Below are positions 17,523-60,691 of a stretch of DNA of 64,000 nucleotides, piece by piece. Positions within the stretch are counted from its first letter, which is position 1, and every line of letters begins with the position of its first letter. A program made the position numbers and the translations under genes. The notes under the pieces are model-generated. The model made no database searches, was not told where the DNA came from, and was given only the letters and a program-made list of their open reading frames with translations. The stretch comes from Bacilli bacterium (GTDB taxonomy: Bacteria > Bacillota_I > Bacilli_A > JBKEDG01): the NCBI GenBank assembly GCA_047975285.1, contig JBKEDG010000061.1, forward strand, positions 8,808 to 72,807, written 5' to 3'.

Positions 17523-17551
17523 ATTATAACAAAAATTAACATAAAAGACAA
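17523..17551 (-). promoter_or_regulatory. sigma-A-type promoter for the pgpA-like/cdaA/cdaR/glmM/glmS operon: -35 TTGTCT (17546-17551), 17-nt spacer, -10 TATAAT (17523-17528)
   Basis: Minus strand reads TTGTCT-tttatgttaatttttgt-TATAAT, about 70 nt upstream of the ATG at 17452. Confidence 0.5.
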
Positions 17552-17648
17552 GTTTCTACATATCAATATTAATTCAAAGTTGAATTAGCCATCTGCATAA
17601 CATTTTATTAAACAATAATTGTAAAAAGTGAATTATGTGAATTATAAT

Positions 17649-17681
17649 AAAAAAGAACTTTCTATTATAATTAGAAAGTCC
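17649..17681 (-). terminator. intrinsic terminator after the HAL-like gene pair
   Basis: Plus strand aaaaaa-gaactttcta-ttataat-tagaaagtcc; on the minus strand a 9/10-bp stem followed by UUUUUU; 44 nt downstream of the stop at 17725. Confidence 0.6.
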
Positions 17682-17724
17682 TAAACTAATAATATCATTT
17701 AATCATATTTGATTATCGATACAT

Positions 17725-19140
17725 TTAATTAGACATAATATCAAGTAAAGCTTTTGACTTTAAAAAACTACTACTATCATCTTTTATCTTCTTTGTATAT
17801 AAATTATAAACTTGCTTTACATTATCACCTAAAGTATTATCACTTAAGCTTATTAACTTACAAGCAATATTCAATTCATTTTCCATGATGTTAAATAAAT
17901 TTCTCACAATTTTTGTTGTTTTTGTTGCCACATACTGAGTATTATTACCACGATCCTCTATATCACCTGCCACTGCAATAAAATCAAGCGACCCTGGGTT
18001 AGATAAAAATCTAATTTCATTATACAATTTTGAATTCATCATTTCTACTGATTCTAAAACATTAGCTTCTGCTTCTAATTCAATACTGCGATAACAAGAA
18101 AGTTTTGCTACATGATTCAATAATTGTCCCAATTCTTCTAATGCAAGTACCCAATTTATTGTTTCAAAATTACAACATGAAATTATGCGTCTCTCCTCTA
18201 ATAACAAACAAGGATTATCATCGCTAGAGTTTAATTGTATTGTCAATAATTCTTCCAAATTATTTAGAGCATCAATTGCAGCAGCATTAACACTTAACCC
18301 ATTCTTAAAAGCAAACGGAAGATTGGTTTTTGAACTACTCGACAACAACTCCCTATTAGCTAGATGTTTCTTAACATCTGTAGCATAATTGTAAGTACCA
18401 TAATTACCCTGATTAGTTAAAAGCATATCAATTTCCAAATTTGAACAGTTATATCCATCAAAAGAGGTTGCTAAAAGTAAAGAAGAAATTTTAAGTAAAT
18501 CTTTCGCTTCTTTTAACATTAAAGCAGCTAGTCCAGCCCCAAAAGCATTAGAACTAATTATAGCAAGTCCATCTTTAGGTCCAAGATCAACTATTTTCAA
18601 TCCTGATTTATAAATTGCATCTTTTGCAAGCATAACTTCACCATTATAATATACCTCACCTCTTCCAAGCATCGCAAGCCCAATGTGAGGAATATTAGTA
18701 ATATCACCAACCCCAACACTACCACTTCTAGGAATCAAAGGCGAAATTCCTTTGTTAATAAAGTCTACATATGCATCGATGACATCTAAACTTGCTCCAG
18801 TACATCCTGATAAGAATCCTCCCAATCTACACAACATTACCGCTCTAACTTCTATATCATTTAAAACTTCACCTGCACAAACACAGTGTGATAAAACCAT
18901 TTGTGTATTATATTCTTGAAAATATTCTTCAAAAATATCTTGATCTTTATTCCAACCAACCCCAGTATTAAATCCATATATTTGCACACCTTCATCAACT
19001 AAATCAAAAACAAGTTGTCTTGCTTCAACAAGTTTTTGGCGGGTATTTGAATCAATTTCTACTTTAACACTATGATCATGTGCAATTCTTGAAACCAATT
19101 CAATAGTAAGATTTTTCCCATCTAAAGTTACTATACTCAT
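17725..19140 (-). CDS. aromatic-amino-acid-lyase-fold (HAL/PAL family) protein lacking the MIO-forming Ala-Ser-Gly triad; candidate trimethylamine-lyase (ergothionase-like)
   Basis: 471 aa; HAL-like N-terminus (MSIVTLDGKNLTIELVSRI..., IYGFNTGVG); at the MIO position reads RSGSVG-VGDITNIPHIGLAMLGRGE versus HAL [23 protein letters not shown] (Ala deleted, Ser->Val); AGGAGGTG RBS; 1-nt gap after upstream paralogue. Confidence 0.7.
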   Translation of the reverse strand: MSIVTLDGKNLTIELVSRIAHDHSVKVEIDSNTRQKLVEARQLVFDLVDEGVQIYGFNTGVGWNKDQDIFEEYFQEYNTQMVLSHCVCAGEVLNDIEVRAVMLCRLGGFLSGCTGASLDVIDAYVDFINKGISPLIPRSGSVGVGDITNIPHIGLAMLGRGEVYYNGEVMLAKDAIYKSGLKIVDLGPKDGLAIISSNAFGAGLAALMLKEAKDLLKISSLLLATSFDGYNCSNLEIDMLLTNQGNYGTYNYATDVKKHLANRELLSSSSKTNLPFAFKNGLSVNAAAIDALNNLEELLTIQLNSSDDNPCLLLEERRIISCCNFETINWVLALEELGQLLNHVAKLSCYRSIELEAEANVLESVEMMNSKLYNEIRFLSNPGSLDFIAVAGDIEDRGNNTQYVATKTTKIVRNLFNIMENELNIACKLISLSDNTLGDNVKQVYNLYTKKIKDDSSSFLKSKALLDIMSN

Positions 19141-19141
19141 C

Positions 19142-20548
19142 TTAACACACCTCCTTTATTAATATCTTTGATTTCACTAAACTATACATTTTTTCTATAT
19201 CACTTGTTAAATTACGATCAGCATCATAAAATGGTAGTACATCTCTAACTTTATCATAAACTATACTTGTTCTTTCTCCTAATTTAATATTGTCTCTTAA
19301 ATCAATTGCCTGACAAGAACACATTAGCTCAACTCCAAATACATACGCTAATTTTTCTAAAATTTCATTAACTTTCATAGTAACTTGTCTCGAATTGCAA
19401 TCATAGTCATCATATTTTGATTTATACGAGAAAAAATCAGAATTTGAAGGGTTAGCCAGGTGACGAATTTCAGCATCAAGTCCTGAAACACAGTTTGGTA
19501 CAATTGCAAATGCGTGTACTTCATTATCTGGTGAAAGATATCTATTTAAACCTGTAAATCTAGTATCAGACAATTTTATGGTTCTAAAAACACTTGATTT
19601 AGACATATGAGAAAAAATTTGACCTAGCATTTCAACATTTATTGTCCAAGCTATTGAATCATTAGTAGTACTATAATAACCATCCTTATCAATAATTATA
19701 TGAGGAACATAATTTAATCCCATACATACTTTTTTTTCTAAATTATTTAGAATATGTCTTGCTGATCCATGAATATGCGTAATGTCACGATAACTTAGTG
19801 GATCTTGCAAAGCGATTTTTTCGCTAGTGTAAATATAACTACCTTTTAAAATATTATTCATGTTTTTTGCAACCACTAAATTTTCTTCAAATGGACGATG
19901 TTTATAAATTGATTCATCAAGTGGTGTAACATTACCATTTAACCCTTCTAAAGATATAGCTGATATTAAATCTATTGTCTCTAAAAAATCTTTTGAGTTT
20001 TTTACTAAAATACTTACAAGTGCAATATCAAAAACACTTGAATTTTGAATACTGTAAGTATCAATAGAATCAAGTTCCAATATTTGCAGCCTTGATTTTC
20101 TAAAAGCCTCTTTTGCGTCAACAATATCATTTTCATAATTAACTTTACCTACCCCATTCATCGCAAGACACAATGCACATAAATTGTCATGATTACTTTT
20201 ATTCTCGTCTAATACTGGAGTTATTTTATAATTAATCATATTCTCTAAAATTTCAACAGTTTTTCGCGAAATACCTACATTACTATTTATAAGTGAATTA
20301 AGTAATACGACCATAACACTTCTTACATCTAGAGTAGAAATTTTTTTGGAACTCCAATCAAGTTCCACATAACTAGCACCATAATCTTTCATAACTTTGC
20401 TTACATCAAACTTTTTTAGAAATTCTTTTCTTTTTTTCTCTAATCTAATGAATACATTTTCATCAACCTCTAATATAGCTTGATTATTAGCAATTAAATT
20501 CAAATCGTCTACATTTAACATTGTACCATCTAAAATAATTTTCTTCAT
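19142..20548 (-). CDS. second, more divergent HAL/PAL-fold paralogue, also without the Ala-Ser-Gly triad
   Basis: 468 aa; HAL-like N-terminus (MKKIILDGTMLNVDDLNLIANNQAILEV), QDPLSYR and ANPSNSD motifs retained; MIO region reads ENKSNHDNLCALCLAMNGVGKV (no ASG); AGGAGG RBS. Confidence 0.6.
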   Translation of the reverse strand: MKKIILDGTMLNVDDLNLIANNQAILEVDENVFIRLEKKRKEFLKKFDVSKVMKDYGASYVELDWSSKKISTLDVRSVMVVLLNSLINSNVGISRKTVEILENMINYKITPVLDENKSNHDNLCALCLAMNGVGKVNYENDIVDAKEAFRKSRLQILELDSIDTYSIQNSSVFDIALVSILVKNSKDFLETIDLISAISLEGLNGNVTPLDESIYKHRPFEENLVVAKNMNNILKGSYIYTSEKIALQDPLSYRDITHIHGSARHILNNLEKKVCMGLNYVPHIIIDKDGYYSTTNDSIAWTINVEMLGQIFSHMSKSSVFRTIKLSDTRFTGLNRYLSPDNEVHAFAIVPNCVSGLDAEIRHLANPSNSDFFSYKSKYDDYDCNSRQVTMKVNEILEKLAYVFGVELMCSCQAIDLRDNIKLGERTSIVYDKVRDVLPFYDADRNLTSDIEKMYSLVKSKILIKEVC

Positions 20549-20718
20549 AATAACCTCCTACTTTATATACTATACTATTATTATACATCATATATCTCTA
20601 AATTTTGCTTGTTTTGGAAACTATATTGAAATATTGACAGATATTTTTGATAAAGTATAGATAAATACCCTATTTTATGGTAAATTTGTATTATAATATA
20701 TATAAGGGGGGATTTTTT

Positions 20719-22329
20719 ATGAAGAGGATTAATAAAATTGTGTTCGTCCCATCAATAATAATTCTTGGTGGTGCCGCAATACTTGGACTTGTAGACGGTG
20801 AAAGGTTTGGCGAAATAAGTCATGGTGCATTTAGTTTTATCTTATCTAGTTTTGGATGGTTATTTCAAATTGCAGTTATGGCATCAGTATTTGTAGTGCT
20901 ATTTCTTTTTATTTCAAAGGGTAAAATTAGGTTTGGAGGTAAAAATGCTAAACCTAAATTTAGTTTCATGTCTTGGTTTGCCATGTCTCTTACAGGAGGT
21001 ATTGCAACAGGACTAGTTCTTTATGGTGTAAACGAGCCAATTGTTTATGTTGGTAATGTATATGGAGAGATGTCTCATTACGGTATTGCAACAGGAACAA
21101 CTGAAAGTGCAATTTTTGCAATGGGAAGAGTATTCTATAACTGGACATTTCTACCATACGCTACTTACGCACTAGCAGGTGCACTAATGGCTTACCTTTA
21201 TTTTAATAAAGGAACAAAGCTTGCTGTGTCTGAAACACTTAGACCAATTGTTGGTAAACTTGCAGATAATAATTATTTTAACTCTATTGTAAATACTTTA
21301 TCACTTTTGGCAATTGCCTTAGGTCTTGCATCTTCACTTGGTGGTGGACTTACATTTGTAGGTAGTGCTATAGAATTCAAGTATGGAATTTCACAAGGAT
21401 ATGTTCTTTGGGGAGTTATCGCTGCTGTAATTACAATAATCTTTACCTTTGCATCTTACAAAGGTGTAGAAAAAGGAATTAAGATTTTGGCTGATTTTAA
21501 TACAAGAATGTACTTTTTAATTTTACTTATTTTATTTATTGTTGGTCCAACAATTTATATGTTATCACTTTCTTCAACTGGAATGGGTTATTGGCTTGAT
21601 AATTTCTTCTCATGGGGACTTGATTCTGGAAACGTATTTAGTGCAAAAGAAATGACTGCAGGACTAGATGCATCACTTGGTGGAGACGCACTTGTTCAGT
21701 GGTGGACACTATATGACTGGGCTATGTGGATAGCATATGCACCTTTGATGTCAATATTCTTAGCAATGATTGCGTATGGAAGAACAATTAGAGAGTTTTT
21801 AATTGTTAACTGGATTTTACCAGCTACATTTGGAGTAGTATGGTTCACTATCTGGGGAGCAACTGCTATATACTGGCAAAATACAGGCGAAGTTGATTTA
21901 GTAAGTGTTATTAACGAAGGTGGTGCTCTTGCTGCTATGTGGGCATTTGTTGATAATATAAACATTGCAGGATTCAACATTGGAATGATTATTATCCCAA
22001 TAATGATTATTTGCTTAATTGTTTCATTTGCTACTGCTGCCGATGCAATGACTACATCAATTGCCACACTTTGTTCAAAAGATTTAAAGCAAGGTGAAGA
22101 ACCTTCAAGTTTCTTAAAGATTATTTGGGGTGTTATCATCGGAGCTATAGCATTTGTACTAGTTGCAAGCGTTGGTGGTGATCAAGGAGTTGATGGTGTA
22201 AAATATATGGCTGCTGTTGGTGGAGGATTTGTATTAATCATTTTCCTTGTACAAATAATCTCAGCAATCAAAACATTTTTTATGGAAGAATTAACCGAAC
22301 CAGAAGAACCATTAATGCATAATGAGTAA
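20719..22329 (+). CDS. BCCT-family (betaine/carnitine/choline-type) quaternary-amine transporter; start taken at MKRINK (ATG 20719)
   Basis: 12 TM; BCCT signature segment WTLYDWAMWIAYAPLMSIFLAMIAYGRTIREF (compare [32 protein letters not shown]); strong RBS AAGGGGGG 8 nt before the ATG; the track's longer form adds an improbable 14-aa leader. Confidence 0.85.
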   Translation: MKRINKIVFVPSIIILGGAAILGLVDGERFGEISHGAFSFILSSFGWLFQIAVMASVFVVLFLFISKGKIRFGGKNAKPKFSFMSWFAMSLTGGIATGLVLYGVNEPIVYVGNVYGEMSHYGIATGTTESAIFAMGRVFYNWTFLPYATYALAGALMAYLYFNKGTKLAVSETLRPIVGKLADNNYFNSIVNTLSLLAIALGLASSLGGGLTFVGSAIEFKYGISQGYVLWGVIAAVITIIFTFASYKGVEKGIKILADFNTRMYFLILLILFIVGPTIYMLSLSSTGMGYWLDNFFSWGLDSGNVFSAKEMTAGLDASLGGDALVQWWTLYDWAMWIAYAPLMSIFLAMIAYGRTIREFLIVNWILPATFGVVWFTIWGATAIYWQNTGEVDLVSVINEGGALAAMWAFVDNINIAGFNIGMIIIPIMIICLIVSFATAADAMTTSIATLCSKDLKQGEEPSSFLKIIWGVIIGAIAFVLVASVGGDQGVDGVKYMAAVGGGFVLIIFLVQIISAIKTFFMEELTEPEEPLMHNE

Positions 22330-22573
22330 TAAACAAGGTGTTACAATTGACTATAAAAAGTTGTTACTATCTAAACCAGATGGACTATTTGAATTATTTG
22401 CACTTGTATTTTTAATTGCATGCACTTTTGCGTTTTATTTTGCACCACTTACATTTAGCAAAATAGAACCAACAAAAGCAATTATGATGTCAATAGTACC
22501 AGCTTTTATTAGCGGATGGGGACTTTTTACGCTCGTTAGATTAGTAAGATACAAAAAAAAATATACTAAATAA
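22322..22573 (+). CDS. small two-TM membrane protein; ATG overlaps the BCCT stop (ATGAGTAA)
   Basis: 83 aa; two hydrophobic helices (LFELFALVFLIACTFAFYFAPL / IMMSIVPAFISGWGLFTLVRLV), basic C-terminus; no obvious SD; start-stop overlap is compatible with translational coupling. Confidence 0.35.
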   Translation: MSNKQGVTIDYKKLLLSKPDGLFELFALVFLIACTFAFYFAPLTFSKIEPTKAIMMSIVPAFISGWGLFTLVRLVRYKKKYTK

Positions 22574-22734
22574 TAAAAAATAGTCATATATAATTCATAT
22601 GATAAAAAATGATAAAAAGAGGAATATTATGATAACATCAAAATATAATTTATTTTTTAAAAATTGGAACAATTTTACTCAAACCATAATAGTTTGATCT
22701 TTTGTTCTGATAGTTTATAATGTTATTATACTAT

Positions 22735-22774
22735 AACACTTCATAGCTATTTACAGAGCTATGAAGTGTTTTTA
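22735..22774 (+). terminator. perfect 14-bp stem / 8-nt loop hairpin plus T-run in the leader of the APC permease (terminator or attenuator)
   Basis: aacacttcatagct (22735-22748) - atttacag - agctatgaagtgtt (22757-22770) then ttttta; arms are exact reverse complements; lies after a TTGATC-16-TATAAT promoter-like element (22694-22721) and 20 nt before the RBS TAGGAGG. Confidence 0.6.
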
Positions 22775-22792
22775 TATATATAGGAGGTAAAT

Positions 22793-24139
22793 ATGAAAGA
22801 AAACAAAGCAGGTTTGCCACTTGCAGTATCTATGGTTATAGGTATTGTAGTTGGGTCAGGAATATTTTTTAAAAGTGATGATGTTTTATCTAAAGTCAAC
22901 GGTAATTTTTCCCTAGCTATAATTGCTTGGATTATAGGTGCAGTTGCTATGATTTTTGGAGCATTAGTAATTGGAACTTATGCAAGCAAGATAAGTCACG
23001 CAAATGGAATAATTGATTACTATGAATATACATTTGGAAAAAAGAATAAAAAATTAGGCGAATTATTTGGGTATATGATTGGTTCTTATAGCGCAATACT
23101 ATTTTATCCTGCATTAGCAGCAGTCATTAGTTGGGTTGCGGGAATGTACACCACTAGCCTATTCTATAATGGTGATGTATCTAATCACAAATTAACGTGG
23201 ATACTAGCCACTTCATATCTTTTAATCATTTTTTTAATCGCCACATTATCAAAACTACTTAGCGAATATATACAAGTATCTTCCACTATTTTAAAACTAG
23301 TACCAATTACTATTATAGTAATATTTGGAATAATTATAGGTTTTGATAATATTGATAACTTCTCAGCATCAATTAGTAAAAATAGTTCATATAGTTTTTC
23401 ATTTACTGGAGCAGTTATTGCAACTGCATTCTCTTTTGATGGATGGATTATCGCTACTACAATAAATGATCGTCTTAAACATCCAAAGAAAGATTTACCC
23501 CGTGCATTATTAATTGGTACAATATTAATTTTCGCTATGTACATTCTTTATTTTATTGGAATAACTTCAATAGTAGGTGTGCATTCAATTATTAATATAA
23601 AAGATAATGCTGTAGCACTAGCTTTTACTAATATACTAGGAAAAAGTGGTTCTACACTGATACTCATCTTCATAATAATATCTTGTCTAGGCACTGTAAA
23701 TGGATTAATTATTGCAACATCCAGGATATATTATCAGCTTGCAATACGTGGGCACGGTCTATTTCCACACTTAATAAGTAAAATTAATCCTCACACTAAA
23801 ACGCCAGTAATTTCATCACTTATTGGCTTTATAATTTCTCTATTTATGTTATTTGTTTGGTATAGTAATTATAATCCAAATATATTAATAAATAAATTTG
23901 TTGATATAAGTTCATTACCAATTGTATTAAATTATATCTCATTTTCAGTTTTATATATAGCTGCGATGTTCCAATTTAAAGACTTGTCATTAACAAGAAG
24001 ATTTGTATTTCCAATCCTAGCATTATTAGGTGCTAGCATAATTATTTACGGCGGATTTTTAGACGAGTCAATATTTTTATACCTAATAATATCTTTTATA
24101 ATTATATTAACAACGTTGATTTTTTTCAAAAAGACTTAG
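22793..24139 (+). CDS. APC-superfamily amino-acid permease
   Basis: 448 aa, about 12 TM; N-terminal GLPLAVSMVIGIVVGSGIFFKSDDV is the typical APC/AAT helix-1 Gly-rich motif; TAGGAGG RBS. Confidence 0.75.
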   Translation: MKENKAGLPLAVSMVIGIVVGSGIFFKSDDVLSKVNGNFSLAIIAWIIGAVAMIFGALVIGTYASKISHANGIIDYYEYTFGKKNKKLGELFGYMIGSYSAILFYPALAAVISWVAGMYTTSLFYNGDVSNHKLTWILATSYLLIIFLIATLSKLLSEYIQVSSTILKLVPITIIVIFGIIIGFDNIDNFSASISKNSSYSFSFTGAVIATAFSFDGWIIATTINDRLKHPKKDLPRALLIGTILIFAMYILYFIGITSIVGVHSIINIKDNAVALAFTNILGKSGSTLILIFIIISCLGTVNGLIIATSRIYYQLAIRGHGLFPHLISKINPHTKTPVISSLIGFIISLFMLFVWYSNYNPNILINKFVDISSLPIVLNYISFSVLYIAAMFQFKDLSLTRRFVFPILALLGASIIIYGGFLDESIFLYLIISFIIILTTLIFFKKT

Positions 24140-24164
24140 ATTGAAGTATACTTCAATCTTTTTA
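24138..24164 (+). terminator. intrinsic terminator of the permease gene
   Basis: agattgaag-tata-cttcaatct followed by ttttta; 9-bp perfect stem. Confidence 0.6.
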
Positions 24165-52760: not shown

Positions 52761-52798
52761 TATAAAAAGTACAGAAGTAATCTAACTTCTATACTTTT
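52761..52798 (-). terminator. intrinsic terminator at the end of the hut operon
   Basis: Minus strand AAAAGUAUAGAAG-UUAGAUUA-CUUCUGUACUUUU (13-bp stem including one G.U) ending in a U-run; 22 nt after the cyclodeaminase stop. Confidence 0.6.
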
Positions 52799-52819: not shown

Positions 52820-53461
52820 TTATAAATAACTATTTACCTTTTCTTGATACACATTTAAAAATTCTGTTGACTCTTTAGAAATCTCTAAACATTTTGATTT
52901 ATAATAACTTACTAAATCTACATCACTTAACCCCGGCAAATTAATTTTTACATTTAAAATAGCCCCTTCAATTCCTGCCGATAAAAGCAATGCAGCAACA
53001 CCAACATCTGTAATAGCATTTTTATTTCCAAATTCAATAATGCTTGTCAATAGTTTAAGTGCTTTCAAACTTTCTGTAGCAATCTCATAAGGAACCTTAA
53101 TTATTTCTTTTGTAGCTTCTTCCATTTGTTCAAGACGAAATTGCTTTTCCTCTTCACTATCTTTTGGTAATTTTAATGCTTTCATGAAAATTCCAAATGA
53201 TCTTGTATCTTCATCAACTAAAAACTCAAGACTATCTTGGTGCGCTTTTAACTTAGAAAATGACTCACTAAATAAATCCTTATCTTTTTCATCAAGAGCT
53301 TCATACTTCTTCTTACCAAAAGTTAAATGCCCCACCATTCTAGCAAGTGCACAACCAACAGCTGCAGCAACACTACTAACACTACCACCACCTGGAGCTG
53401 GTGAATCAGAATCAACTTCCTTCACAAATTCTTTTACTGTCAAATCAATTAAATTACCCAC
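52820..53461 (-). CDS. formiminotetrahydrofolate cyclodeaminase / methenyl-THF cyclohydrolase-family protein (FTCD C-domain); start re-assigned to a GTG at 53461
   Basis: SPAPGGGSVSSVAAAVGCAL motif about 20 residues from the N-terminus, as in cyclodeaminases; GTG overlaps the hutI stop (GTGGGTAA) and has GGAGGA 7 nt upstream; the track's longer ORF (to 53563, TTG start) would overlap hutI by about 110 nt. Confidence 0.7.
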   Translation of the reverse strand: MGNLIDLTVKEFVKEVDSDSPAPGGGSVSSVAAAVGCALARMVGHLTFGKKKYEALDEKDKDLFSESFSKLKAHQDSLEFLVDEDTRSFGIFMKALKLPKDSEEEKQFRLEQMEEATKEIIKVPYEIATESLKALKLLTSIIEFGNKNAITDVGVAALLLSAGIEGAILNVKINLPGLSDVDLVSYYKSKCLEISKESTEFLNVYQEKVNSYL

Positions 53462-54743
53462 AACTACATCCTCCACAACCACTTGATTTTTCTTTATATA
53501 TTTCGCCGTTAGCAACAACAAGTTTACCATCTTTAAAGACGTGTTTAACATGGCTTTTACCAAAATTATAGAATAAATAATTTAAATTATCAGTATTATA
53601 AACTACAAAGTCAGCATTTTTACCTATTTCAATACTACCTACTTCTTTCTCTAATCCAACTGCCTTTGCAGCATTTATTGTCGTAGCACTAAGAACTTCC
53701 TCAGGTAGCATTCTAACTTTACTCGCTGCCAAATACATTGCAAAAGGTAAACTTTCACTAGGACAACTACCTGGATTATAGTCAGTTGAAACTGCAACAC
53801 AACAGCCAGCATCAATCATATCACGACCTTTTGCAAAATCTTTGTTTAAATTAAATGATGTTGCAACAAGTAAATTAGCTACGATATCACTATTTGCCAT
53901 AGCATCTATCCCTTCTTTACCAGTAGCCATTAAATGATCCGCACTAACACAGCCTAATTCACAAGCTAGTTTTGCTCCACCTAAATCGACAATTTCATCA
54001 GCATGAATTTTCGCTTTAAAACCTTTTGCAACAGCATGTGATAAAATATCTCTCGATTCTTTTGGATTAAATACTGCATCTTCACAGAAAATATCAACAA
54101 ATCTAGCTAAGTCTTTATCAGCCAAATAATCAATCATTTCTTTAACAAGTTTGATATATCCCGCCTTGTTTTCCTTATATTCAGGTGGAACAGCATGAGC
54201 ACCCATAAATGTTGAAACCACTGATATAGGATGTAACTCATTTAACCTTTTGGCCACCTCAAGTTGTTTAAGTTCTGTTTCAAGATTTAAACCATATCCA
54301 CTTTTTGCTTCAACTGTAGTAACACCATATTTTAGCATTGTGTTTAAGCTATCATATGCTTTTTGAAGTAATGAATCAGCACTTGCATTTTTTGTCGCCT
54401 CAACAGTACTTAGTATCCCACCACCAGCTTTTAAAATATCAAGGTAGGGAACACCTTCTAATTTCATCTTTAGTTCATGCTCACGACTTCCACCATGTAC
54501 TAAGTGAGTGTGGGCATCGACCAAACCAGGTGTAACTAGAAATTTATCAGCATCTAAAATAAGCGTATTTTCATCAACCAAGCTTTCATCATATTCACCA
54601 GTTCCTACATGGGAAAATTTCCCCTTTGTTACAGCAAACCAACCATTATCAATTGCTCCAACTTCCTTCATTTCACTACCACGTCTTGGACCTCCATCCA
54701 TTGTAATCAATGTTGAAGTATTATATACTATTAAATCAGCCAT
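53454..54743 (-). CDS. hutI: imidazolonepropionase
   Basis: 429 aa amidohydrolase; metal-binding HTHLV near the N-terminus, KIHADE and D-loop motifs; C-terminal CGGCSCG tail coincides with the downstream gene's SD. Confidence 0.9.
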   Translation of the reverse strand: MADLIVYNTSTLITMDGGPRRGSEMKEVGAIDNGWFAVTKGKFSHVGTGEYDESLVDENTLILDADKFLVTPGLVDAHTHLVHGGSREHELKMKLEGVPYLDILKAGGGILSTVEATKNASADSLLQKAYDSLNTMLKYGVTTVEAKSGYGLNLETELKQLEVAKRLNELHPISVVSTFMGAHAVPPEYKENKAGYIKLVKEMIDYLADKDLARFVDIFCEDAVFNPKESRDILSHAVAKGFKAKIHADEIVDLGGAKLACELGCVSADHLMATGKEGIDAMANSDIVANLLVATSFNLNKDFAKGRDMIDAGCCVAVSTDYNPGSCPSESLPFAMYLAASKVRMLPEEVLSATTINAAKAVGLEKEVGSIEIGKNADFVVYNTDNLNYLFYNFGKSHVKHVFKDGKLVVANGEIYKEKSSGCGGCSCG

Positions 54744-55636
54744 TATAATAAACTATTCTCCAAAACCATATCCATATTAAACCCTTCAACTTTCAAGTAG
54801 AAACTTGCACAATCAGTAAGTGCCTCCATTGGAAGTGAGCCAATAATCTCGCTACCAATTACATTAACACCATACCTAGCAGCTTCAAATTTAACTGTTT
54901 CAAAAACTCTATATATACTTGTTTTTCTATAATCAAGGATATTCATAGAAACTTGTACAATTCCACGCTCTGTTAGTTCCATTGGTCCAGCTTGTACAAA
55001 ACGAAACCCACCACTACTAAATCTAATTGCCTTAGAAATCGATGCTGCAATATCTACATTATCTGTATCTAAATTAATATTAAAAGCAATAAGTGGAACA
55101 CGAGCACCCACAGCAGTACATCCAGCGGTCGGATGTTTTTTTGCGTTCCCATAGTCAGGAGCCCAATTTTCTTCTTTAATTTTATCATCAAATCCTTCAA
55201 ATTCACCTTTTCTTATTGTTGGTAATTTAATACGATCTGGTTTATTAGCCGCTTCTGCATACATATAAATAGGTAAATCATACTTGCTTGCCAATTCTTT
55301 TCCAAGTTCATTTGCAACTTCAACACACTCTTCCATTGTAATATTTTTAAGTGGAATAAATGGAATAACATCTGTTGCCCCCATTCTCTTATGTTCTCCT
55401 GAATGGTTATTTAAGTCGATTAGTTCTGTAGTTTTTCCAACTAAGTCAATTAACGCACTCTTAATTGCATCAATATCTCCAAGTAAAGTTACAACTGTTC
55501 TGTTGTGATCTGGATCTGGCAAATAACTTACTAGTTTAAAACCTTTACGGTCCTTTAATACACTTACAATTTTTTCAACTTTATCTAAATCCCTACCTTC
55601 TGAAAAGTTAGGTACACATTGAACTATTCTATTCAT
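54743..55636 (-). CDS. ftcD: glutamate formimidoyltransferase (formiminotransferase domain only)
   Basis: 297 aa; MNRIVQCVPNFSEGRD N-terminus is the hallmark of the FTCD transferase domain. Confidence 0.85.
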   Translation of the reverse strand: MNRIVQCVPNFSEGRDLDKVEKIVSVLKDRKGFKLVSYLPDPDHNRTVVTLLGDIDAIKSALIDLVGKTTELIDLNNHSGEHKRMGATDVIPFIPLKNITMEECVEVANELGKELASKYDLPIYMYAEAANKPDRIKLPTIRKGEFEGFDDKIKEENWAPDYGNAKKHPTAGCTAVGARVPLIAFNINLDTDNVDIAASISKAIRFSSGGFRFVQAGPMELTERGIVQVSMNILDYRKTSIYRVFETVKFEAARYGVNVIGSEIIGSLPMEALTDCASFYLKVEGFNMDMVLENSLL

Positions 55637-55645
55637 AATCTCTCC

Positions 55646-57304
55646 TTAAAATAATCCGTCGATTTTCCCATCGTCGGAAATTGTCATTCTATTTGCTGCA
55701 GGTACTTTTGGTAACCCCGGCATTCTCATTACACTACCAAGGATTGCAACAACAAATCCTGCTCCTGTATTTACAATAAAATCTCTAACAGTTACATCAA
55801 AACCACTTGGTGCTCCGATTTTTTTAGCATCGTCACTAAATGAGTATTGTGTCTTTGCAACACAGATTGGAAAATTACCAAACCCACCTTTTTCAATTTT
55901 CTCTAATGATTCTTTTGCCTCTTCTGTCAAAATAACGTTTTTTGCACCATATATTTCAGTAGCAATTTTATTCATTTTTGCTTCTAGGCTCATATCTAAA
56001 TCATATAAATATTTAAAATCGTTTTTCTGTTCACAAATTTCAACAACTGCATTTGCTAAATCAACTGCTCCTTCTCCACCTTTTGCATGAACTTCAGTAA
56101 GTATTGCTTTTATTCCCAAATCTGCACACATTTTGGTAAGTAAATCAAATTCTGCCTTAGTGTCAGTTGGAAATGCATTAATTGCAACAACTGGAGTAAG
56201 TCCAAATTTCTTTACATTTATAATATGTTTTTCTAAGTTGCAAAAACCAGTTTTAACAGCTTCAAGATTTTCGCTTGCAAGGTCAGTTTTTTCAACACCA
56301 CCATGCATTTTTAATGCTCTAATCGTAGCCACTAAAACTACAGCAGAAGGTGTTAAATTACCGTATCTACACTTAATGTCTATAAACTTCTCAGCACCCA
56401 AATCTGCTCCAAACCCTGCCTCAGTAACAGTATAATCACTTAACTTAAGAGCTGTTTCTGTTGCAATAATTGAATTACATCCATGAGCAATATTTGCAAA
56501 TGGTCCACCATGAATAACAACTGGAGTGTGTTCAAGAGTTTGTACTAGATTAGGCTTCATAGCATCCTTTAAAAGCAAACAAACTGCGTGTGTTGCTTGG
56601 ATATCATTTACAGTTATTTTTTCACCTTTTGTTGAATAAGCAATGATAATTCTTCCAACTCGTTTTTTTAAGTCTCCGATATCTGTAGCAAGACATAATA
56701 TTGCCATTATCTCACTTGCAACAGTAATATCAAATCCATCTTTTCTAGTCATTTGATCATATTTACCATCTATTCCAACAACAACTCTTCTTAACGCACG
56801 ATCATTTAAATCTACACAGCGCTTCCAAGTAATATTTTCAATATCAACATCTAAATTGTTACCTTGAAAAATATGATTATCTAACATAGTAGCAATTAAA
56901 TTATTAGCAGAAGTAATAGCATGAAAATCACCCGTAAAGTGAAGATTTATATCTTCCATAGGAACAACTTGTGCTTCTCCACCACCTGCGGCTCCACCTT
57001 TAATACCAAAGATTGGGCCAAGACTAGGTTCTCTAAGAGCACTAATTGCACTCTTACCAATCTTATTAAGTCCCATTGACAATCCAATATTAACGGTTGT
57101 TTTTCCTTCACCTGCAGGTGTAGGACTAATAGCTGTAACTAAAATCAATTTACCTTTTTTATCTGATTTTATTTTAGAAATATCAATCTTTGCTTTATAT
57201 TTACCATATAATTCTAAACTATCTTCATTTAACCCTAATTTTTCTCCAACTTTTAAAATATGTTGCATCTCACAACTTTGTGCTATTTCAATATCTGATC
57301 TCAT
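55646..57304 (-). CDS. fhs: formate--tetrahydrofolate ligase
   Basis: 552 aa; SDIEIAQ..., P-loop [10 protein letters not shown], and conserved FTHS core. Confidence 0.92.
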
Positions 57305-59326
57305 TTATTTTCCTCCCTTGATATAATTTTTATTTACAAGATCACTAACTAAATTAGAATCTGACACTACAGGAACTGTAATATATGAGTTCATTTCATC
57401 TAGTTCATTATATTCTTCCACAGTAGAAATTGAATTGTCATTACATGCCCAAGCTCTTCTTCCAACACCCATCATTACGTCAAAAGGCATTGCCGCACGC
57501 AGAATTTCATCAACTTTATCACTTCCATCAAGAAGCATTCCAAATCCACCATTAATTGATTTCCCAATACCTACTCCTCCACCATTGTGAAGTGCAACTA
57601 AACTCATCCCACGAGCAGCGTTTCCTGCATAAACATGAGTAGCCATATCTGCCATAATATTAGATCCATCTTTAATATTAGATGTCTCTCTAAATGGTGA
57701 ATCAGTTCCACCTGTATCGTGATGATCTCTTCCAAGCATGATTGGACCTACTTCACCTTTTCTCACCAAATCATTAAACTTCAAAGCAATTTTTAATCTA
57801 CCCAGTGCATCTTGGTATAAAATTCTTGCTTTAGTTCCTACAACTAATTTATTATTCTTTGCTTCTTTTATCCAAATATAATTATCTCGATCTTGGAAAC
57901 GACGATTTGGATCAATACAACTCATTGCTGCTTGATCTGTAGCATCCAGATCAGCATCACTGCCACTCAAACATACCCATCTAAATGGACCATACCCATA
58001 ATCAAATAATAATGGTCCTAAAATATCCTCTACATAGCTTGGCCATATAAATCCATCTAAATCATTTTTTCCATTCTTGCATATTTCAACTACTCCAGCA
58101 TCATATATTGCTTTCATAAAACTATTCCCATAATCAAAGAAATATGTTCCCTTACCAGTAAGTTTTTTAATTATTTCATAGTGTCTAATAAGGCCTTCAT
58201 TAGTCTTTTTTACAAACTCTTGCTTATTAGTCGCAAGTAAATTGGTTCTTTCCTCAAAACTCGTTCCAGCAGGACAATAACCACCATCATAAACGTTATG
58301 ACAAGATGTTTGATCACTTAATAAAGGAATTTCAATATCATTTTCAAACGCATACTCTAAAACATCCACAATATTACCATGATAAGCAATTGAAAGTTTT
58401 GTCTTGCTATCTAAATTTTCCTTTGCTTTTGCAAAACAATCCGCAAGATCCTTTGCAACGTACGTTACCCAACCTTGAGAGTGTCTTGTTTCAATTCTTG
58501 AATAATCAACCTCTGCAATAATACTAACTCCACCAGCAACTTCACAAGCACGACCTTGAGCTCCACTCATACCACCTAGACCACTTGAAACAAATAATAC
58601 TCCTGCTAAATCATCATTAGCACCAACGCCACAATGTGCTCTTGCTGCATTTAATACAGTTGAATAAGTTCCATGTACAATACCTTGTGGTCCAATATAC
58701 ATCCAGCCTCCAGCCGTCATTTGTCCATAATTAGCAACACCTAATGCTGCAGCACGGTTAAAGTTATCCAAATCATCATAAAGTCCTGTCATCAATCCAT
58801 TCGTAATCATTACTCGTGGATTCAACTCATGAGATTTATACAAACCAAGTGGATGTCCTGACATTATAACTAAAGTTTGCTTAGAATTCATTTCTTTTAG
58901 ATACTTTATTATAAGATGATATTGTAGCCAGTTTTGAAACACTTGTCCTGTCTCTCCATATGTTACTAACTCATATGGATAAAGAGCAATGTCAAAGCAA
59001 AGATTATTTGCTATCATAACTTGAAAAGCTTTAGCCTCAATAATATTACCTTCATATTCTTCAATACTCTTAGCACTCATATCACCAGTTGGTCTAAATC
59101 TATACGCATAAATTCTACCATAAGTAAGTAGTTCATCTAAAAATTCAGGTGCTAGCACTTCATGCCATTTTTGCGGCACATAACGCAAAGCATTCTTTAG
59201 TGCAAGTTCTGTTTCTTCTTTTGTTAATGTAAATTCTCTCTTTGGCGCTCTCCTTATCCCTTCTTGAAATTTAGGATAGTCTGGCAATTCATTAAAAATC
59301 GCCTCAATTGTAAAAACTTTATTCAT
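57305..59326 (-). CDS. hutU: urocanate hydratase, long (~670 aa) form
   Basis: 673 aa; NAD-binding and core motifs (GQMTAGGWMYIGPQGIVHGTY, GLGGMSGAQ); about 80-aa N-terminal extension relative to 550-aa bacterial urocanases. Confidence 0.9.
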   Translation of the reverse strand: MNKVFTIEAIFNELPDYPKFQEGIRRAPKREFTLTKEETELALKNALRYVPQKWHEVLAPEFLDELLTYGRIYAYRFRPTGDMSAKSIEEYEGNIIEAKAFQVMIANNLCFDIALYPYELVTYGETGQVFQNWLQYHLIIKYLKEMNSKQTLVIMSGHPLGLYKSHELNPRVMITNGLMTGLYDDLDNFNRAAALGVANYGQMTAGGWMYIGPQGIVHGTYSTVLNAARAHCGVGANDDLAGVLFVSSGLGGMSGAQGRACEVAGGVSIIAEVDYSRIETRHSQGWVTYVAKDLADCFAKAKENLDSKTKLSIAYHGNIVDVLEYAFENDIEIPLLSDQTSCHNVYDGGYCPAGTSFEERTNLLATNKQEFVKKTNEGLIRHYEIIKKLTGKGTYFFDYGNSFMKAIYDAGVVEICKNGKNDLDGFIWPSYVEDILGPLLFDYGYGPFRWVCLSGSDADLDATDQAAMSCIDPNRRFQDRDNYIWIKEAKNNKLVVGTKARILYQDALGRLKIALKFNDLVRKGEVGPIMLGRDHHDTGGTDSPFRETSNIKDGSNIMADMATHVYAGNAARGMSLVALHNGGGVGIGKSINGGFGMLLDGSDKVDEILRAAMPFDVMMGVGRRAWACNDNSISTVEEYNELDEMNSYITVPVVSDSNLVSDLVNKNYIKGGK

Positions 59327-59497
59327 AAAAACCCTCCTTTATAATATATAATAATTATATAAGTTTTGACACATCAAATGCATTAATATCAAAAAGGAAT
59401 AAATAAGATACATTTGTGAATAATGAACAATCATTTGATGAATACATCTATTTATTAGATTTACTCTAAAATTATTTTTACTTTACCAATCAACTAT

Positions 59498-59527
59498 TAT
59501 CTATAAGATACTAGTATCATATAGATA
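59498..59527. promoter_or_regulatory. 30-bp near-perfect palindrome (TATCTATAAGATACT|AGTATCATATAGATA, 14/15 arm matches) about 170 bp upstream of hutU; candidate operator
   Basis: Read directly; no adjacent T-run on either strand, so it does not look like an intrinsic terminator. Confidence 0.4.
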
Positions 59528-59647
59528 ATAATAAATATTAGTAAAATTACAGCAAAAAAGATACAAATTATACTTTTAATTTGTATTTCAAACAAAAACT
59601 ACCTAATAATAAAAAAACTCTAAAATTAGAAGTTTTTTATATTGAAT

Positions 59648-60691
59648 CTATTCCCAATCTAAAATGATTTTCCCACTATTTCCACTCGCCATAATTTCAA
59701 ATGCCTCTTGAAAGTCATCCACTTTAAATCTATGTGTAACTATTGGGTTAATATCTAAACCAGATTGTAAAAGTGCGCTCATTTTAAACCAAGTACGATA
59801 CATTTCTCTACCATAAATTCCTTTTATGAATAAACCTTTAAAAACAACTTTATTCCAGTCAATAGTTGCATCCTTTGGTAAAATTGCAAGCAACGAAATT
59901 TTACCTCCATTGGCCATATTATCAAGCATATCGTTAAATGCAATCTTTGACCCACTCATCTCAAGACCAACCCCAAATCCATTTTTTATTCCAATTTCAC
60001 AACATATATCAGTTAAAGAAACATTACTCGTATTATATGCATATTTAAGTCCCATTTTTTTAGCAAGATTAAGGCGATAATCATTTATATCTGTAATTAC
60101 AACTTTTCTTGCCCCTGCTTTTTTTGCTACAGCAGCTGCCATTATACCAATCGGCCCTGCCCCAGTAACCAAAACATCTTCTCCAACTAGATCATATGAT
60201 AAAGCAGTATGTACAGCATTTCCTAGGGGATCAAAAACTGAAAACAGTTCCTCATTGATTTCAGGATCACAATGCCATACATTTGAAGATGGAATAACTA
60301 AGTACTCAGCAAATGCTCCATCACGATTAACACCAACGCCATAAGTATTAGGGCATAAATGTTGCTGCTCATTTAAACAATGGTGGCATTCCCCGCATAC
60401 AATATGTCCCTCGCCAGAAACAATATCTCCTTTTTTTACATTGCTAACATTCTTACCAAAATCAACAATTTTCCCCACATATTCATGACCAATTGTCATA
60501 GGAGTTTTAATCGTATTTTGAGCCCAGTCATCCCAATTATAAATATGGATATCTGTTCCACAAATAGAAGTTTTCTTTATTTTAATCAATACTTCATTAT
60601 CACCAAATTCAGGCATATTTACATCTTCCATCCAAATTCCTTTTTCTGGATATTTTTTTACTAGTGCTTTCATAAAAACTCTCCTTTTCAA
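59648..60691 (-). CDS. tdh: L-threonine 3-dehydrogenase (Zn-dependent MDR family); start may be the MKALVKK methionine
   Basis: [67 protein letters not shown] is near-identical in pattern to E. coli Tdh ([50 protein letters not shown]...). Confidence 0.9.

Follow-up and report, generated by a model that had tools for sequence, protein, structure and literature searches.

In a 64,000-nucleotide stretch of DNA from an uncultured Bacilli bacterium (the window; G000:C43:8808-72807) lies a histidine-utilization (hut) locus with the gene order hutU-fhs-ftcD-hutI-cyclodeaminase and no gene for histidine ammonia-lyase (HAL; HutH), which catalyzes entry into the pathway. We conclude with high confidence that this locus is a standard folate-dependent histidine-utilization operon, and that in this genus the gene for its entry enzyme has been relocated. 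The genome (G000) comprises 1.53 Mb in 103 contigs, with ~30% G+C, and is 99.5% complete. Gene identities, judged by Pfam and NCBIfam models against curated cut-offs, were computed here together with copy numbers, the location of hutH, and gene order in relatives; we infer that the five genes form one transcription unit.

A folate-dependent operon with hutH at a second locus

The operon occupies positions 52820-59326 on the minus strand of the window and, from hutU onward, consists of the following genes:

57305-59326, minus strand: hutU, long-form urocanate hydratase, 673 amino acids (aa); TIGR01228, 419 bits (cut-off 375)
55646-57304, minus strand: fhs, formate-tetrahydrofolate ligase, 552 aa; NF010030, 890 bits (cut-off 652); PF01268, 876 bits
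54743-55636, minus strand: ftcD, glutamate formimidoyltransferase, 297 aa; TIGR02024, 416 bits (cut-off 221); PF07837 and PF02971 match too
53454-54743, minus strand: hutI, imidazolonepropionase, 429 aa; TIGR01224, 435 bits (cut-off 298)
52820-53461, minus strand: gene for an FTCD_C-type formimidoyl-tetrahydrofolate (THF) cyclodeaminase, 213 aa, GTG start; PF04961, 206 bits (cut-off 24.5)

A preliminary description of this DNA had reported five packed minus-strand genes at these coordinates; the open reading frame (ORF) listing is identical, and all five proteins score above their curated cut-offs. Junctions in the ORF listing, from hutU to the cyclodeaminase gene, are 0, 9, -1, and -8 nucleotides: the first base of fhs comes directly after the hutU stop, and hutI overlaps the ftcD stop by 1 nucleotide. 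The cyclodeaminase GTG at 53461 has a Shine-Dalgarno sequence, GGAGGA, 8 nucleotides upstream; a longer ORF starting at a TTG, to 53563, was discarded as unnecessary, as the Pfam match begins 8 residues past the GTG. This protein falls below the cut-off of the FchA cyclohydrolase model (138 against 275 bits), and its context suggests cyclodeaminase rather than cyclohydrolase activity. By tblastn, hutU, fhs, and every other hut gene are single-copy in the genome.

We found no hutH in the operon or elsewhere in the window, in agreement with the preliminary description; the sole HAL-fold genes there are two paralogs, at 17725-19140 and 19142-20548, that lack the motif forming the 4-methylideneimidazole-5-one (MIO) cofactor. 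A search of the whole genome with the hutH equivalog model TIGR01225 returned three HAL-fold genes, namely these two and the following:

G000:C47:9274-10806: hutH, canonical; TIGR01225, 657 bits (cut-off 539); MIO-forming motif GSLGASGDL

The product of this gene aligns with the histidases of P. putida and T. cruzi at all the HAL catalytic motifs, YG.NTGFG, SH, NGTQ, QD.YSLRC, NFH, and QEDHVSM. The gene lies 59 nucleotides past rny (RNase Y) and 8 nucleotides ahead of ilvE, and has its own AGGAGG. The preliminary description had offered, as a fallback, that hutH might be elsewhere, and this proved correct; a canonical hutH at another locus is also the first half of what it had named as evidence against its own preferred idea, a supply of urocanate independent of HutH.

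The gene order is specific to one genus

Of 40 class-level relatives searched, 13 carry hutU; for these, and for a metagenome-assembled genome (MAG) of the Acholeplasmataceae, we compared the surrounding ~20 kb. In every compared genome outside this genus, 12 of the 13 and the Acholeplasmataceae MAG, hutH adjoins hutU, in the order hutH-hutU-ftcD-hutI-fchA or, in family f3, hutU-hutH-hutI-ftcD-fchA. The order hutU-fhs-ftcD-hutI-fchA without hutH was found only in G000 and its congener G001, the MAG “Bacilli bacterium VLC_076,” whose HutU is 92% identical to that of G000. G001 also shares the rny-hutH-ilvE arrangement. In G002, G012, and G006 the gene after rny is not hutH. Because G000 and G001 alone have the hutH-less order and relatives keep hutH beside hutU, the arrangement is a rearrangement fixed in one genus: a scramble of an order still present in relatives, and not a difference in pathway. 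The preliminary description put hutH at the head of any normal hut operon, which overstates the case, as hutH stands second in family f3 and is remote from the operon in staphylococci (PMC8617998).

Four of the relatives, G002 (of the same family), G012, G026, and G040, carry fhs directly after fchA, and their HutU proteins are 67-69% identical to that of G000. These operons have the same gene set, fhs included, with hutH first and fhs last, and with hutG added after fhs in G012 (L046:15662-16690); in this genus, by contrast, hutH and hutG are gone from the operon and fhs stands second. The ancestral cluster was plausibly hutH-hutU-ftcD-hutI-fchA-fhs-hutG. The presence of fhs inside a hut operon had been singled out as a neat energy-conserving design, but the link of fhs to hut is not unique to G000, since these four relatives end their operons with it. 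Separate histories of hutH and the hutU block found no resolved support: quick trees differed, the concatenated tree was an unresolved polytomy, and approximately unbiased (AU) tests (p 0.30 and 0.135) reject neither grouping.

HutU is a urocanase, and the MIO-less lyases do not account for the missing hutH

The preliminary description had suggested that urocanate or thiolurocanate is supplied by trimethylamine (TMA) lyases acting on histidine betaines instead of by HutH, and had raised the question of whether HutU is closer to thiourocanate hydratase. Its candidates, the two MIO-less paralogs, lie in an island within the window:

17534-24157: 6.6 kb island with two MIO-less ergothionase-like lyases, a BCCT transporter, and an APC transporter

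Both lyases have the HAL fold without Ala-Ser-Gly, and the top PDB match of both is T. denticola ergothionase (Td_ETL; 6s7j, 287 and 228 bits). Lys384 of Td_ETL binds the ergothioneine thiolate, and the characterized histidine-betaine lyase Swoo_3913 has Asn at this site (bioRxiv 10.1101/2025.08.13.670108; 10.64898/2026.04.22.720169). The corresponding residue is Met in the 17725-19140 product and Asn in the 19142-20548 product, such that neither lyase has the thiolate-binding Lys of an ergothionase.

It is highly improbable that the operon degrades ergothioneine-derived thiourocanate in place of urocanate. The ergothionase-like genes, 33 kb away, are the sole point in favor of such a role, and are outweighed by the properties of HutU itself: it scores 290 bits on the thiourocanate hydratase model NF058530 (cut-off 930) and 335 bits on the S-methyl thiourocanate hydratase model NF058531 (cut-off 880) but passes the hutU model TIGR01228, its top PDB match is the urocanase of T. 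cruzi (6uek, 557 bits), and the catalytic residues of P. putida urocanase, Y52, Q131, T133, R362, D443, and R455 are all kept in the alignment. The absence of the Lys384 equivalent from both paralogs, and downstream genes that belong to the urocanate route, also argue against it. We rejected the thiourocanate reading on the hidden Markov model scores.

Alternatively, the operon could be a common trunk for urocanate that enters from two sources, from histidine through HutH and from histidine betaine (hercynine) through the island lyases and the BCCT importer, the latter with release of trimethylamine. The resemblance of both paralogs to ergothionase and their lack of Ala-Ser-Gly are consistent with this, as are the Asn that the 19142-20548 product shares with Swoo_3913, the BCCT transporter divergently adjacent to the lyases, and the status of HutU as the sole urocanase-family gene in the genome. 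However, the island is absent from G001, where contig C65 runs uninterrupted through the site and a 46-bp junction takes the island's place, and neither the island nor an ergothionase-like gene was found in the relatives (0/40). G001 has the hutH-less operon without the island, so the split of the operon is independent of the lyases, the island is no explanation for the missing hutH, and TMA lyases are not needed as a substitute for HutH.

The relatives of the lyases themselves point the same way. Their nearest homologs elsewhere are intact tandem pairs of 498 + 498 aa in metagenome genomes (L070:5141-11497, L072:5047-11497, L073:8503-11497), with Asn in one partner and Lys in the other at the Lys384 site; these pairs adjoin a third MIO-less lyase, a Fer2/FAD/Mo xanthine-dehydrogenase-like trio, and often a BCCT transporter, and not hut genes. 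The G000 copies fall ~30 aa short of this length, and the active-site motifs missing from one differ from those missing from the other, leaving their activity uncertain; these changes may reflect either decay or a complementary heteromer. Nor did we find an operator common to the lyases and hutU. We therefore consider a two-input trunk unlikely, and additional urocanate from histidine betaine possible as an add-on only, and unsupported. A more elaborate version, in which the uncoupling of hutH and the embedding of the sole fhs create a substrate-neutral trunk from urocanate to glutamate, formate, and ATP, fed by HutH plus an acquired island with a BCCT importer and a complementary heteromeric TMA-splitting histidine betaine lyase, is decidedly unlikely. 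We favor an ordinary folate-dependent operon fed by the remote HutH.

The proposed route and the role of Fhs

In the proposed route, the canonical MIO-containing HutH encoded on contig C47 would deaminate histidine to urocanate, HutU would hydrate urocanate, and ring opening by HutI would yield N-formimino-L-glutamate. FtcD would then move the formimino group onto THF with release of glutamate, the FTCD_C protein would convert 5-formimino-THF to 5,10-methenyl-THF and ammonia, and FolD, encoded on contig C34, would produce 10-formyl-THF. Finally, Fhs could convert this to formate, ATP, and THF, or the one-carbon (C1) unit could be left for purine and formylmethionine (fMet) synthesis. The six steps through FolD rest on gene identity, while we infer the direction of Fhs in the seventh. 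The preliminary description had assigned the same pathway, with formimino transfer to THF followed by the cyclodeaminase and then Fhs, and this assignment is right.

Outside the operon the genome carries folD and genes for de novo purine synthesis, purH and purN among them; it also has fmt, and no recognizable pyruvate formate-lyase was found in it at its 99.5% completeness. Given the purine and fMet genes and the lack of that enzyme, the sole Fhs probably has two tasks, to balance the C1 pool and to recycle THF during bulk histidine use. Hut operons of two families, f1 and f11, include fhs, at one or the other of two positions, which argues for selected co-expression. These observations bear on another possibility, that the placement of fhs is no energy-conservation device and that the sole Fhs of a purine-making genome is mainly biosynthetic or C1-balancing, having come to lie in the operon by rearrangement. 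Such a role would fit the single copy of fhs, the presence of purH, purN, and fmt, the lack of a link between fhs and the hut operon in 9 of the 13 relatives that have one, and the proposal that Fusobacterium nucleatum feeds its C1 pool via Hut (PMC12288474). It fits less well with the repeated hut linkage, which suggests selection for co-expression, or with the lack of a pyruvate formate-lyase as an internal source of formate, and we regard it as possible but rather doubtful.

Three points weigh against our interpretation of the locus as a folate-dependent route ending in Fhs. The first is the direction of Fhs, which we presume. The second is regulation: in the whole genome the hut regulator models PF09021 (HutP) and TIGR02787 (CodY) gave no match, and the top score on TIGR02018 (HutC) was 117 bits, below the cut-off of 220. 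The third is a HutG-like formimidoylglutamase (G000:C75:44733-45650; L075:6710-7690, minus strand) that scores 239 bits on TIGR01227 (cut-off 229) and is unlinked to the operon, in the arrangement hutG-yaiI-leuS; the same family is present in G001 and in 3/3 f11 genomes. As FtcD and the HutG-like enzyme coexist, formiminoglutamate has two possible fates. Judging from sequence similarity, the HutG-like enzyme may offer a folate-independent one, in which case flux through FtcD and Fhs would not be guaranteed.

Boundaries and upstream region of the operon

The neighbors of the operon, rnj and ftsK downstream and tdh and gltX upstream, are housekeeping genes unrelated to it, and two features mark its ends:

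52765-52798, minus strand: terminator-like hairpin ending the operon; 14-bp stem, -15.9 kcal/mol, z -3.96
59327-59647, minus strand: hutU upstream region with conserved block 59386-59443 and a TATAAT-like box; identified from G000/G001 conservation, with a putative regulatory function

A strong terminator had been reported at 52761-52798. The hairpin is real, as 0/200 shuffles fold as well and a U/A-rich tail follows it, but “strong” is generous for a stem with just 3 G-C pairs. At the other end, the hairpin after tdh (59595-59650) is weak (-8.4 kcal/mol, z -1.5), and read-through from tdh into the operon is therefore possible. The flanks differ between the two congeners: in G001 a lipase/esterase-like gene lies between tdh and hutU (L037:12642-13982), and a TM2-domain gene lies between the cyclodeaminase gene and rnj (L037:3885-5189). 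Both are absent from G000, indicating that the operon flanks are indel-prone.

Conservation between G000 and G001 extends over the last ~130 nucleotides ahead of hutU, despite the gene inserted further upstream in G001. The 58-nucleotide block at 59386-59443, upstream of the predicted hutU promoter, holds an imperfect inverted repeat, TTGTTCA-N3-TTCACAA, and has no second copy elsewhere in the genome or before the hut operons of relatives. A resemblance of the block to a CodY box (10/15) was dropped, the genome having no CodY. We found no operator common to the regions upstream of hutU, upstream of hutH and rny, and between the lyase and BCCT genes, and Rfam at the gathering threshold gave 0 matches in the window. 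Nor is any regulator conserved beside the hut operons of relatives, whose flanks are unrelated genes.

Comparison with known systems

With hutH located, this ordinary operon no longer speaks for a route that bypasses HutH. Its gene content documents an uncultured, small-genome Bacilli lineage as a probable fermenter of histidine via the folate branch. Within one genus a seven-gene hut cluster has been scattered over three loci, and the genome's sole Fhs appears tied to histidine catabolism by a shared transcription unit.

Literature searches returned no explicit description of a hutU-fhs operon. Streptococcus pyogenes is described as carrying a second fhs (fhs.2) among hutU, the cyclodeaminase gene, and hutH, which would give it two fhs copies against the one in G000.

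Histidine breakdown through the folate branch is textbook knowledge and has been described for F. nucleatum, in the cluster FN1404-FN1407 (PMC12288474). The enzymes are the same as here (HutH, HutU, HutI, glutamate formimidoyltransferase, and formimino-THF cyclodeaminase), with FolD and Fhs connecting the pathway to the C1 pool; there, however, the cluster includes hutH while fhs (FN2082) lies apart, the reverse of the arrangement in this genus. A remote hutH has its own precedent in Staphylococcus xylosus, in which hutH (SXYL_00008) is unlinked from hutUI (SXYL_00617-18) yet co-induced with them (PMC8617998). Staphylococci thus resemble this genus in keeping hutH apart from a hutU-hutI operon, and differ from it in using HutG and in having an operon without FtcD, the cyclodeaminase, or Fhs. 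Set beside these systems, the locus represents a known pathway whose genes are ordered in a way peculiar to this genus; it does not encode a new one.

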